A stretch of DNA of 64,000 bases from Coraliomargarita sp. (GTDB lineage: Bacteria > Verrucomicrobiota > Verrucomicrobiia > Opitutales > Coraliomargaritaceae), in NCBI GenBank assembly GCA_965216325.1, contig OZ244160.1, forward strand, positions 2,816,001 through 2,880,000. Reading direction: 5' to 3'. The number at the start of each line of letters is the position of its first letter. The stretch's first letter is position 1. The position numbers were made by a program, and so were the translations under genes. Shown here in pieces: positions 25,554 through 37,335 of this stretch. The notes under the pieces are model-generated. The model worked only from the letters and a program-made list of their open reading frames with translations. It searched no databases and was not told the origin of the DNA.

Positions 25554-25610
25554 CATGAACGTGGAGATCTGGCGACGGCGTTAGCCGTTGCTCAATGAAT
25601 CTGGTTAGCT
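25554..25610 (-). other. attC site of cassette 8 (terminal, somewhat degenerate)
   Basis: + strand CATGAAC-GTGGA...GCGACGGC GTTA GCCGTTGC...ATCTG-GTTAGCT; GTTAGCT is complementary to AGCTAAC at 25871. Confidence 0.8.
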
Positions 25611-25620
25611 CTGGGTTTGC

Positions 25621-25857
25621 CTAGCGGCGTCCTTCGTTGAGTGCTTTCTTCAATTCCTCTTCAGACCTGAATTCTTCTTTTTCTTTTGGTCCGAAGGCAA
25701 TGTAGAGGAGTAGTCCGAGTGCGTTGAGAGTGCATAAGACTACAGTCCAACAAATTTTATCTGTTGGCTCGATTTCTTCACTTTTGAGATGGGCAATCAG
25801 TGCCCAAAGCCAAGCTAGCTGAATCAACGCTATGATAATAATCCAAGTGGTGTTCAT
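25621..25857 (-). CDS. Cassette 8: small two-TM membrane protein (PLDc N-terminal-like)
   Basis: 78 aa; KICWTVVLCTLNALGLLLYIAFG pattern; ATG 14 nt from the core site. Confidence 0.75.
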   Translation of the reverse strand: MNTTWIIIIALIQLAWLWALIAHLKSEEIEPTDKICWTVVLCTLNALGLLLYIAFGPKEKEEFRSEEELKKALNEGRR

Positions 25858-25870
25858 TTCTTATTCTTTT

Positions 25871-25925
25871 AGCTAACGTGGAGCGGGGTGACGGCGTAGC
25901 CGTTGACCCGCGCGGCTGGTTGAAC
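25871..25925 (-). other. attC site of cassette 7
   Basis: AGCTAAC-GTGGA-GCG GGGT GACGGC gta GCCGTT G ACCC g CGC-GGCTG-GTTGAAC, with 5-nt spacers and an extrahelical G. Confidence 0.88.
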
Positions 25926-26029
25926 AAAGCCGCTGCGCGGCGGCTGTTGGTTAAGTGCTTGGGCGTCTTGGTGGGTGGTTTCTAAAGTCAAAAGTTCCGG
26001 GCTAGGCTGAGTTGCCCCAACCTGCCCGG

Positions 26030-26996
26030 ATGAAAAAAAAATACCAAATCATCAAAGACTCAGTGTTCGCAAACGTATCAACAGTTCTATGCGCATGTCC
26101 ATAGCAAAGCTCACTCGCCTCGTAGTCGTAAGGCTTATCTGGATTGGGTCAATCGCTTGGGCGAGCACTACCAACCGAAGGGCCCGGGGTTGCGCCGTCT
26201 ATCGGAACGTCAGGTGTTGGACTATCTGATCTACCTGCGCGACGACCAAAAGCTGGCCGCGTCAACGGTGAATCAGGCGCTGGTGCCGATTCGGACGCTT
26301 TACCGTGATGTGCTGGCCCGGGAGTGGAAGCTGTGGTCGGAGTTCACGCTGCAGCGGCGCGAGCCTTTGCCGAGCGTGCTCACGCGCGACGAGGTGCGGC
26401 GTGTGCTGGCCTGTGTGCATGAGGGTCGCTTTCGGGCGGTGCTCTCGCTGATCTATCACTGTGGTTTGCGTTTACAGGAGGCCTTGCAGCTCAAGCCGAC
26501 GGATATCGACTCTGGACGCGGCGTCGTTCGCGTGCGCCATGGCAAGGGCAACAAGGCGCGTGAGGTGCCGATTTGCCCGGCAATGGTCAAGCGGTTGCGG
26601 GCATTTTATAAGTGCCACCGCAATCCGGACTGGCTGTTCCCTGGCGTGGGGCGCGGCTGGAAGCAGTCAGGCATCTCTCAGGCGCAGGCGATGCACCGCA
26701 GCGCCAAGCCGATGAGCAGCTCGGCGCTGGAGATGGCGATGCGGATCATCCGCGCCAATAGTGGCATCAACAAGCACTTCACGGTGCATACCTTGCGGCA
26801 TAGTTTTGCCACACATTTGCTGGAGGACGGGGTGTCGATTCGTCAGGTCAGTCGCTATCTCGGCCACTCGGAACTGAAGAGCACGCTGGTGTATCTGCAT
26901 GTAACCGAGCTAAGTGAAGAAGGTGGCCGCCAGAGCCAGAGCGCACTGTTTGACAGTGTGATCGCTCCGGCCTTGTCGAAGCGCAGCAAGCGTTGA
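26030..26996 (+). CDS. Tyrosine recombinase (phage-integrase family). The ATG at 26030 is out of frame by one A in an A9 tract; the ORF track starts at TTG 26157
   Basis: [43 protein letters not shown]. The frame upstream of 26157 encodes SPRSRKAYLDWVNRL, resembling an N-terminal SAM-like domain. Confidence 0.88.
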
Positions 26997-35522: not shown

Positions 35523-35592
35523 TCGCATTTTGGGCTCCGCCAACAGATCAACTTCAGACTACTACAATTTGATTCAATTTAGCGTGTGAAAA

Positions 35593-36454
35593 TTAGAAGA
35601 AATCATCGACGGCCTGGTCTTCTTTAGCCTCTTCCTGAGCTTTTCTCTGTTCCATTTTATTAATTAAGTCTTCCTCGGCTCCTTTAAAGAGTGGGGTCGA
35701 ATGAGTCAGCAGGTATATTTCCTCGATGTTACGGGAATTCACTTTTTCCCATAGGGCATCGATCATAGCTCGGACTTCGGGCATAGTGTTGTAAGCTGAT
35801 CTGTCTACATTCATATTTCGCATCATCTTATCTTTGGTGAGGCCCTCTTTTGCACTCTCTGATAAATTACCGTAAATTTTAGAATAGATAACTCGACCGT
35901 AATTGGTGCTATTCGAATGTGTTACACGAGTTTGAAAACCATCTATTCTTTCCTCCTTGCTCTCATCGAGCTTACCAAACCTCTTGCGAATCGCTGCGTC
36001 CATTTTAGGTTCAAGATCGATATCAACTTTTTTAATTACCCCGAAAAACCGATTATTTATGGATAGAACTGTTGAACCGTCATGTTGGATCGCAGTGATA
36101 TAATTTCTGATCTCACTTAATTGAGGAAATGCTTTCAAGATGTCTGCGTCTAATTTATTGAGTGATACGTTAGGCAACTGATAGGAATCTAGCTGGGTTT
36201 TCTGATATATCTTGAGGAAATCTTCGATCGGAATTCCCCAGGGAATATCTTTATACCCTTTGTAAACGGACGAATCTGCAGTGACATGATTTTTGACTAG
36301 TTCATCAATTGCGGCTTTGGACTTTTGCTCTTGTCGCTCAATCTCAGCCTTACGCTCCTCTTCGGCAATGCGTCGCTCTTCCGCTTTGCGGGCTTCCTCA
36401 GCCTTACGCTCCTCTTCGGCAATGCGTCGCTCTTCCGCTTTGCGGGCTTCCTCA
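35593..36454 (-). pseudogene. Cassette 2: 5'-truncated hypothetical gene fused to the intron 4 fragment
   Basis: AT-rich ORF; sequence beyond 36454 is the antisense of an RT gene; its expected start core site (TGCGAAC on +) is absent. Confidence 0.75.
36343..36454. repeat. 54-bp exact tandem repeat (two copies plus CTCA) encoding EARKAEERRIAEEERKAE
   Basis: CTCAGCCTTACGCTCCTCTTCGGCAATGCGTCGCTCTTCCGCTTTGCGGGCTTC at 36343 and 36397. Confidence 0.92.
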
Positions 36455-36925
36455 CCCGTCGCAACTGGAGTGTGAGTATGGAGTATCGTCTGTATCAGAT
36501 CCGCCAATACGTGCGGGGCTGGATGGGCTACTTCGGACTCAGTGAAAACTCCAGTTTATGGATCTGGATTGACCGCTGGCTTCGCAGGCGAGTTCGCATG
36601 TGCTACTGGCGCATGTGGAAACGCCCGCGACGTCGCTATCTCAATCTGGTGAAAATTGGCTCCAATAGTAAGTTTGCTGGTGGCTTTGCTAAAAGCTCAA
36701 AGGGCTACTGGCGTCTGGCTCAAGCGCTGGGCACACAAACGGCAATGAGCAATCAATGGCTAGAGGAACAAGGCCTGATCAACATCAGGCAACAATGGTG
36801 GAGTTTAAAGCTCCTGCGTATAACCGCCTTAAAACAGACTGCGTAACACTGTGATCAGTCTGGCTGCGGACCCGCACGGCAGGTGGTGTGAGAGCCGGGG
36901 GACTTAGTGCCCTCGGCTACTCGAT
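36451..36925 (+). mobile_element. Intron 4: 5'-deleted group II intron fragment (maturase C-terminus plus D5/D6)
   Basis: LTRRNWSVSMEYRLYQIRQYVRGWMGYF...TALKQTA. 36577-36925 matches 31882-32230 apart from one base I saw in D6. Followed by TTCTGC, the remnant R'' of cassette 1. Confidence 0.9.
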
Positions 36926-37293
36926 TTCTGCCTCCAGGCGGTTAGTGTGTCGATTTGCTCTAACGTGTGTTTGTTGGTATCCCAAACTGGAGTGAAAAGT
37001 GAGATTCTATTTGGAATAAGTGGCACGACATAAATATGGATAGATGAATTCTCATCTTCTTTATATCTAATGTCGATATAGTTGAAAGTCTTTGGCTTCG
37101 CCGTCCTAGGAAAGGTTCCGAGTTCGATAGATTCTATTTTTTCTTTTTCTATCCTAAGGTTTAGCCTTCCTGATGTGCATTCGATCGAATCTGGGTTGAT
37201 TCTGAACTTTCCTTTACTTTCATAAACCCAGAACCATCTGCCAACGAAAGATGCGTTATGTTCAGGTGTGGAGAAGAATGCTTTAAATTCCAT
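36904..37293 (-). CDS. Cassette 1: hypothetical protein; its last residues and stop codon come from the intron antisense strand
   Basis: 129-aa AT-rich ORF; ATG 8 nt from the attI core. Confidence 0.75.
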   Translation of the reverse strand: MEFKAFFSTPEHNASFVGRWFWVYESKGKFRINPDSIECTSGRLNLRIEKEKIESIELGTFPRTAKPKTFNYIDIRYKEDENSSIHIYVVPLIPNRISLFTPVWDTNKHTLEQIDTLTAWRQKSSSRGH

Positions 37294-37300
37294 TTCTTTC

Positions 37301-37335
37301 GCAGAACAGTGTTATGTAACGGACTCAGTCCGTGA
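37301..37335 (-). other. Putative attI site
   Basis: Minus strand ...TTACATA-ACACT-GTTCTGC; not part of an attC hairpin; lies between the first cassette and intI. Confidence 0.7.

Follow-up and report, generated by a model that had tools for sequence, protein, structure and literature searches.

What becomes of an integron when its own recombination sites are the targets of mobile elements? The question is raised by a 64,000-nt (64-kb) stretch of Coraliomargarita sp. DNA – the window throughout – that carries an integron integrase gene (intI) and, to its left, a cassette array spanning positions 25554-37307. Five of the seven attC sites of this array are split at the R'' box, four by group II introns and one by an IS91-type element; attC3 and attC7 are intact. 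Very probably this is the chromosomal integron of a marine verrucomicrobium of the Opitutales, and mobile elements targeting the bottom strand of attC in its folded form have colonised its sites. The data show the anatomy of the locus, where the elements are inserted, how many copies there are and how these are related. Parasitism of this kind is already known from integrons; the present array is a densely occupied case from a new host, and the known mechanism is unchanged. Positions without a prefix are those of the window; the prefix C1 denotes the genome contig of the same organism, an assembly of one contig (3.06 Mb, completeness 99.98%).

The integron is bona fide. Its integrase (IntI) exceeds the cut-off of the integron integrase model TIGR02249 (265 bits) and, being aligned over model positions 7-315 of 315, contains the IntI-specific extra segment; IntI-catalysed excision and integration of cassettes is its predicted function.

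37691-39016, + strand: intI, 441 aa; 356.5 bits to TIGR02249; Pfam Phage_integrase and SAM_4
37301-37690, no strand assigned: attI region; the attI/cassette 1 junction, GCAGAAC on the + strand at 37301-37307, complements the TTCTGC found 3' of intron B3

The integrase gene diverges from the cassette open reading frames (ORFs), all of which lie on the minus strand to its left, with attI between; the + strand thus carries the attC bottom strands. The closest relatives of the integrase are found in Coraliomargarita, Puniceicoccaceae and Opitutales metagenome-assembled genomes (MAGs), at 60-72% identity, in keeping with the verrucomicrobial chromosome proposed from the sequence-only reading of this locus. 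The first ~130 residues of IntI (residues 1-130; 37691-38080) form an N-terminal extension that has no match in Pfam and is common to the Opitutales relatives, whose matches are full-length.

The attC sites were delimited with a covariance model trained on 15 attC sites without introns, all from this genome; five of the eight predicted base pairs show covariation. Within the window the model gives six matches at E <= 2e-4, all within 25554-33620 (the next best has E = 2.5), three of which are intron-bearing sites outside the training set. Across the whole 3.06-Mb genome there are 26 matches at E <= 1, all of them in six clusters.

33557-33616, + strand: attC2 bottom strand, R' to L'' (5' exon of intron A); R' GCAGATC; model match 33557-33620, E = 2e-4, and fold
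32921-32977, + strand: attC3, intact; R'' is the GAT variant GATCTGC and complements the cassette 3 start GCAGATC; 62.4 bits, in training set
30279-30338, + strand: attC4 bottom strand, R' to L'' (5' exon of intron B2); R' GTAGAAC; match 30279-30344, 47 bits, not in training set
28992-29059, + strand: attC5 bottom strand, R' to L'' (5' exon of intron B1); R' GCCTAAC; match 28992-29065, 27.8 bits, not in training set
25871-25917, + strand: attC6 bottom strand, R' to L''; R'' GTTAGGC at 28445-28451
25554-25610, + strand: attC7, intact, at the array end; 54.3 bits, in training set

No match to the attC model adjoins intron B3: the hairpin of attC1 is missing. The R'' box complements the start of its own cassette in all six cassettes in which this can be assessed, over 7/7 bases in cassettes 3-7 and 6/6 in cassette 1; the start of cassette 2 is deleted, and R-box complementarity is therefore not assessable there. 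In several attC sites GAT replaces the canonical GTT at the recombination point (R'' GATCTGC or GATATGT; R' ending in GATC). Such sites occur at 32921-32977 and 33557-33563 in the window and at C1:2272794, C1:2765183 and C1:2278187, and their R boxes are still complementary across the cassette.

The inserts are listed below; intron ends were set by aligning all copies in the genome.

33617-35522, + strand: intron A, 1906 nt, predicted to be autonomous; reverse transcriptase (RT) 34044-35441, 465 aa, with YADD; inserted CTGGT|T
30339-32230, + strand: intron B2, 1892 nt, predicted to be autonomous; RT ORF 30286-32151, with YADD; inserted CTGG|TT
29060-29711, + strand: intron B1, 652 nt, ORF-less; retains domains D1-D3, the start of D4, D5 and D6
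~36452-36925, + strand: intron B3, 5'-truncated and B-type, the last ~474 nt (maturase part of the RT, D5 and D6)
25918-28443, + strand: IS91-family element, 2526 nt, in attC6 at CTGG|TT; tyrosine recombinase 26157-26996, Y2 transposase 26993-28096

All four introns lie on the + strand, antisense to the minus-strand cassettes, and each cuts the R'' box off from the rest of the attC, as the sequence-only reading had proposed. Autonomous (A and B2), ORF-less (B1) and truncated (B3) copies do occur side by side, a further point on which that reading was right. Matches to the Rfam models for group II D1-D4 (RF02001 and RF01998) are present at 29149-29314, 30428-30593 and 33713-33878, all on the + strand, and the RT ORFs of A and B2 score 397 and 357 bits against the group II RT/maturase model TIGR04416 (cut-off 300). 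In Pfam the A and B RTs show RVT_1 and GIIM alone, with no endonuclease domain. The RTs of A and B2 are 48% identical, which marks two lineages. Intron B3 is 92% identical to positions 1438-1914 of the B2 query and has a GIIM domain within a maturase-only ORF (36325-36846). The 5' ends read GUGUG (A) and GUAUG (B); the 3' ends read A-CCC-GAU (A) and A-CUC-GAU (B), the last hairpin having a bulged A, and fit the 3'-end rule AXXXRAY given in PMC7923331. Domains D5 and D6 were assigned from our own folds as a 33-nt hairpin with an AU bulge and CGC, followed by the bulged-A hairpin.

All nine A and B copies in the genome that retain a 5' end directly follow an attC stem plus CTGG(T/G). Lineage A is inserted as CTGGT|T in three of its five copies and as CTGGG|T in the other two; lineage B inserts at CTGG|TT, one base earlier. 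Where attC sites of this genome are empty, their last bases are CT(G/T)G(T/A)T, in most cases CTGGTT or CTTGTT. At the eight occupied sites that have both intron ends, removal of the intron in silico yields CTGGTT (seven sites) or CTGGGT (one) and restores the attC in every case; the score on the attC profile rises after splicing at all eight, by ~2 to 7 bits (for example 36.2 vs 32.0, 20.1 vs 15.9 and 11.7 vs 7.5). The prediction that intron-free junctions would score as attC is thus borne out, and the restored boxes predicted for this array (GTTCTAC, GTTCGAC and GTTCGCA, together with the TTCTGC beside B3) are all correct.

The fifth interruption is of another kind. What had been counted as a cassette, so that the array seemed to hold eight, is the 2526-nt IS91-family element in attC6: there are seven cassettes. 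The inverted-repeat ends of the element (GTTGAAC/GTTCAAC) mimic R boxes, which explains the count of eight. Its Y2 transposase scores 339 bits against the IS91 transposase model NF033538 (cut-off 125) and carries Pfam Y2_Tnp and Zn_Tnp_IS91. The genome holds three copies, 99.9% identical (25918-28443 in the window; C1:815793-818317 and C1:1299808-1302332, both on the minus strand), and each lies in the 3' half of an attC, between ...CT and GG(T/A)T, at the point where the introns insert and oriented as they are. Without the element attC6 reads CTGGTTAGGC, which complements the start of cassette 6, and a marine metagenome contig joins 25917 to 28444 (depth 3.6; shorter side 32 letters, 90% likeness). 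The three copies inserted in attC sites, together with this contig that lacks the element, led us to reject 25918-28443 as an eighth cassette. For the tyrosine recombinase of the element the integron integrase model is the top family match, at 177.6 bits, below the cut-off. Insertion sequences of the IS1111-attC group target attC sites in one orientation; the element described here differs from them in belonging to the IS91 family (rolling-circle Y2 transposase plus a tyrosine recombinase) rather than to IS110/IS1111. A literature search by title and abstract found no description of an attC-targeting IS91-family element. Its relatives among 150 genomes of the order are at most 45% identical, and the target rule is drawn from the three copies of this genome.

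Preference for attC sites extends across the genome. Three intI genes are present, each with its own attC array: that of the window, one at C1:2766097-2767434 (74% identical to it) and one at C1:811175-812566 on the minus strand (39% identical). Clusters of attC sites without an integrase lie at 0.55, 1.30 and 2.27 Mb, giving three integrons and three integrase-less clusters in all. By a manual and approximate count of total and occupied sites, introns occupy ~9 of 30 attC sites, in four of the six clusters, and the IS91-type element three more, so that ~12 of 30 are interrupted. Among the five copies of intron A, differences amount to 0-11 of 1906 positions, and the 465-aa RT ORF is open in all; five near-identical intact copies mean that this intron is in a recent burst. 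It also occurs in two marine metagenome runs, with 13-15 differences, and in one of these the contig continues into different flanks. There are likewise five B-type introns: B1, B2, B3, a copy at 0.55 Mb (80% identical to B2) and a second ORF-less copy at 2.27 Mb. At one locus (C1:550373-554175) a B-type intron has a copy of intron A inserted after its first base, both occupying one attC, a twintron-like nesting that follows from the one-base offset between the target registers of A and B.

A third family of class C introns in the same genome provides an internal comparison. It comprises six full copies of 1922 nt (starting at C1 1096162, 1142399, 1321291, 1370894, 2235860 and 2598906) and four of ~1163 nt that share one identical internal deletion (starting at C1 347834, 1639980, 2696469 and 2977968), all at least 99.4% identical, which brings the group II introns of the 3.06-Mb genome to 20 copies (A, B and third family). 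All ten lie directly behind a terminator-like hairpin and a T5-6 run, and none lies in an attC, so that among these class C introns it is only those of lineages A and B that target attC sites. The third family in this respect behaves as terminator-homing class C introns of the B.h.I1 type (Robart et al. 2007, as cited in PMC4424553), with which A and B share the use of a hairpin and a very short intron-binding site 1 (IBS1; 3-4 nt in class C introns). Unlike that type as described there, A and B use the attC hairpin plus CTGG(T) instead of a GC-rich stem and T-run, and none of their ten copies lies behind a terminator.

The co-residence of attC-homing and terminator-homing class C introns is what the model of Leon and Roy (2009, as cited in PMC7923331) calls for, in which an intron in an attC and an intron behind the terminator of a gene recombine and so join the gene to the attC. 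The introns of the window might accordingly be intermediates of cassette formation, the array having been caught building cassettes rather than being parasitised, and B3, which is joined directly to an internal part of an ORF where no attC intervenes, could be read in the same way. We consider this very improbable. The restored R'' boxes complement the start of their own cassette in six of six testable cases, so the cassettes predate the insertions; moreover, the RT of the terminator-homing family is 39-44% identical to those of A and B, with short DNA matches of ~70-77%, too little for homologous recombination.

We prefer the reading that existing attC sites have been colonised. The two ORF-less B copies (B1 and that at 2.27 Mb) occupy different attC sites and have different 3' exons. 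Across the junction left by ORF loss (D4 remnant plus D5) they are identical at 269 of 272 positions; in D1-D3 the figure is 252 of 319 and in the last hairpin 17 of 31, the two hairpins differing in sequence and each still folding as a hairpin. In D1-D3, B1 is 91% identical to B2, and the 2.27-Mb copy is 85% identical to the 0.55-Mb copy. This mosaic would be best explained if the ORF was lost once and the copies afterwards moved in trans and recombined with relatives of full length; the ORF-less B copies have thus probably moved in trans. Movement after loss is pointed to independently by the four identically deleted copies of the third family, which lie behind four different terminators. 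Bacterial ORF-less introns are described in PMC4424553 as rare, usually found beside related intact introns, and treated as having lost retromobility. The present copies resemble those in that related intact introns, whose protein could act in trans, are co-resident (the nesting of A in B is likewise twintron-like in the sense of that paper), and depart from that account in that both the ORF-less B copies and the deleted third-family copies point to movement after loss.

The introns also share a replication strand. All ten A and B copies lie on the strand with positive GC skew, and + strand skew is positive at all four intron-bearing clusters, so the intron-bearing bottom strands are lagging-strand templates. 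This fits priming from the replication fork, which PMC4424553 describes for endonuclease-less introns. In the 0.81-Mb array, which has the opposite orientation, none of the seven attC sites holds an intron. Taking all group II introns together, at least 19 of the 20 copies lie on the locally positive-skew strand; the copy at 1142399 is near the skew peak and is ambiguous. Cumulative GC skew over the contig rises from 1.8 Mb through the contig end/start to 1.1 Mb and falls between 1.1 and 1.8 Mb only, a profile that implies either very unequal replication arms (probably ~2.4 vs 0.7 Mb) or a large rearrangement.

A route to the present array can be proposed from these observations. Endonuclease-less class C introns of two lineages would have reverse-spliced into the single-stranded attC hairpin just past its stem, with retrohoming presumably at the lagging-strand template. 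Intron B1 has lost its ORF and was then probably mobilised in trans by a B-type RT, and B3 would be the stump of a deletion that also took the attC1 hairpin and the start of cassette 2. The IS91-type element occupies the same attC spot as the introns, in attC6. From the missing attC1 and cassette start, the protein of cassette 2 appears to be N-terminally truncated. Within the ORF of that cassette a 54-nt unit is present in two tandem copies (36346-36454) that end exactly at the B3 junction; the duplication may be the scar of a deletion or repair event.

For the integron the expected consequence is loss of recombination at the interrupted sites. With R'' split from the hairpin, IntI should be unable to form the R box, so that five sites would no longer recombine; the 'locking' of the array suggested by the sequence-only reading is a reasonable inference from this arrangement. 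Since attC3 and attC7 are intact, excision of blocks (attI x attC3, attC3 x attC7) is possible in principle. The antisense inserts, 0.5-2.5 kb in length, should in addition impede transcription from the cassette promoter, as has been shown for S.ma.I2 (PMC3001079).

Could the interruptions have been kept because they freeze useful cassettes? Seven cassettes are involved.

36904-37293, - strand: cassette 1 ORF, 129 aa, no family match; its last codons and stop run into intron B3
35593-36507, - strand: cassette 2 ORF remnant, no family match
32947-33549, - strand: cassette 3 ORF, 200 aa, lipoprotein-like N-terminus, no family match
32237-32913, - strand: cassette 4 ORF, signal-peptide-like N-terminus, no family match (scanned as a longer ORF, 32237-33061)
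29721-30406, - strand: cassette 5, yefM/phd antitoxin and yoeB toxin (Pfam PF02604, PF06769)
28446-28733, - strand: cassette 6, ParE-like toxin (Pfam PF15781), with a small ORF upstream at 28726-28944; the cassette is 28446-28944
25621-25857, - strand: cassette 7 ORF, PLDc_N small membrane protein (Pfam PF13396)

Chromosomal integrons usually carry their attC bottom strands on the leading-strand template. In the window the bottom strands are on the + strand, where GC skew is positive, an orientation that would otherwise favour cassette loss; splitting R'' at five of seven attC sites, with attC3 and attC7 alone intact, would then preserve an array that includes two toxin-antitoxin pairs, and retention of the decayed B3 copy would follow. 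Such selection is quite unlikely to account for the pattern: the copies of A are near-identical (0-11 differences) and stand in other attC contexts in metagenomes, which fits recent selfish spread.

Several results nevertheless weigh against colonisation by attC-homing introns as we describe it, and are set out together here. The Rfam D5-D6 model RF00029 has no match at E <= 1 over 24500-40000. Lineage B does not have the published TTGT/T register. The argument from replication strand compares one array with four, and the chance of seven empty sites is ~0.06 if sites are independent. In the RT tree the best topology places nine attC-associated RTs on one side of a branch and nine others on the other, with weak support (57/43). 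An outward sigma-70 promoter was not found in the introns: there are seven promoter-like sites against 7.4 expected from shuffles, and none in any intron 5' part on the minus strand, as judged by an E. coli-type consensus from which that of the host may differ. Introns of the IIC-attC (class C, attC-homing) lineage frequently have such a promoter in D1/D2, although it does not define them. Lastly, a rule requiring short-read unitigs to bridge a junction by 31 letters is satisfied at two of seven intron-exon junctions (the 3' ends of B1 and B2).

The last of these points bears on whether the repeated intron segments are an assembly artefact, repeats having been misplaced into the array. The introns are repeats of 0.65-1.9 kb, beyond the span of short reads, and only the two junctions just mentioned are bridged. 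An artefact is nonetheless scarcely credible. The genome is a single, virtually complete contig, and in two samples of the organism the unitigs of the unique flanks, which have single-copy depth, reach into every intron end by 18-61 nt. The intron A unitig from runs of the same organism spans exactly 33617-35523 at 5-6x single-copy depth, which matches five copies, and the IS91 unit stands at 3-4x, which matches three. Every insert, furthermore, is at the same base of a different attC, with a restored R'' that is complementary; misplacement would not yield that. Short-read unitigs gave no sign of misassembly. The four sequencing runs compared yielded no allele of attC2, attC4 or attC5 that lacks its intron; metagenome contigs near these sites diverge into other attC sites. 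Joints in the organism's runs (for example 29680 to 33612 and 35523 to 37305) were rejected as intron-free alleles: their short sides are 21-30 letters, with unknown letters between, and they are read as contigs from other arrays of the genome.

The kinship of the introns was addressed with an RT tree of 18 rows, in which the references are four class 1 integron RTs checked by gene context rather than the published IIC-attC (class C, attC-homing) set. The plasmid relatives closest to the A RT (48-49% identical; 45-49% when the RTs of both A and B are compared with them) lie antisense in class 1 integrons behind aadA1, blaIMP-4 and aadA11; a fourth, behind dfrA12-orfF, has an RT 40-44% identical to those of A and B. 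The RTs of A, B and B' cluster with two RTs from an Opitutaceae integron (L045; support 88/96), the four class 1 RTs form a group of their own (78/91), and deep nodes are without support. The A and B RTs thus appear to adjoin the IIC-attC group of class 1 integrons without nesting in it. In PMC3001079 the IIC-attC intron proteins are monophyletic with 100% bootstrap. The class C assignment, attC homing and division into two lineages asserted in the sequence-only reading stand, and membership of the IIC-attC clade is left undecided by the split at 57/43.

From the same tree one may propose that A and B form a class C clade of their own within the Verrucomicrobiota, which came to target attC sites independently of the IIC-attC lineage, a possibility we hold as tentative and somewhat doubtful. 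It would account for the cluster of A, B, B' and Opitutaceae RTs apart from the class 1 group, for the insertion of B one base off the published site, and for the hosts given in Table 3 of PMC3001079, which are Proteobacteria save Methylomirabilis and two marine metagenome entries. The best tree, however, sets the nine attC-associated RTs against the nine others, and the published register is used both by A (GT|T) and by a relative with a 53%-identical RT in another genome of the order, whose intron lies at TTGT|T. In the Opitutaceae integron two successive attC sites are occupied at CTGGT|T, one by a full intron and the other by a 5'-truncated one, and the R boxes are complementary; its attC sites were read by eye, since the model trained on the present genome is unfit for surveying others (10 matches in 41 other Opitutales loci, none in L045).

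Whatever their ancestry, A and B share much with the known IIC-attC introns S.ma.I2, E.c.I7, Kl.pn.I1, N.e.I1 and G.s.I1, as these are described in PMC3001079 and PMC7923331: an endonuclease-less class C RT and insertion at R'' of the attC bottom strand, antisense to the cassettes, A being in the GT|T register of the insertion consensus TTGT/T within R'' (PMC7923331) with a different IBS1. Relative to those descriptions the differences are a host among the Verrucomicrobiota, a separate RT clade, the one-base-earlier register of B, the presence of four copies in one seven-cassette array, ORF-less copies and no detected outward promoter of E. coli type. Integron introns are mostly in the last cassettes according to PMC3001079, which mentions one case with a second intron as 5' exon. 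The halophile integrons and clusters of attC sites lacking integron-integrases (CALINs) UHB.F1, UHB.I2 and H.ha.F1/F2 (Sonbol and Siam 2021, PMC7923331) are similar in being environmental, in carrying toxin-antitoxin cassettes, and in having truncated introns beside other elements that use single-stranded DNA. In the account given there they hold single or paired copies, mostly of class IIB; here two IIC lineages occupy ~9 of 30 attC sites.

How unusual, then, is this density? The claim that it is unusual holds against relatives. Near-identical copies of intron A are absent from all 30 related genomes compared, four of which have weak partial matches, and an RT match at E <= 1e-90 occurs in three of 150 other genomes of the order, where many MAGs are fragmented and may hide repeats. 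Nor is the invasion confined to this array: the same introns occupy attC sites in three further clusters of the genome, and the Opitutaceae integron holds two introns. Integrons are usually treated as freely shuffling cassette stores, and here five of the seven sites of one array have been split by parasites of the site itself; attC-homing introns are thereby extended to the Verrucomicrobiota. Natural pairs for experiments are available in this genome: ORF-less beside intact introns, the two registers of insertion, and arrays of either orientation relative to replication. It also gives a concrete reason for the breaks that short-read MAGs of the group show beside intI: of the closest IntI loci, most (e.g. 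L011, L014, L015 and L018) start within ~0.5-0.8 kb upstream of the gene.

A broader proposition, which we regard as unlikely on present evidence, would have three or more unrelated elements that depend on single-stranded DNA land at one common point, the R'' end of the folded attC bottom strand; these may be the class C introns of both lineages, with their one-base offset, and the IS91-type element with its IntI-like recombinase. Jointly they would inactivate most attC sites of arrays on the lagging-strand template and turn a shuffling platform into a fixed block, while ORF-less mini-introns would still be able to retrohome in trans and, through template switching for instance, to recombine with copies of full length. 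Were this so, mobile-element load and array orientation, and not integrase activity alone, would set cassette mobility in environmental integrons.

At its far end the array is adjoined, at attC7, by dgkA (25120-25512).

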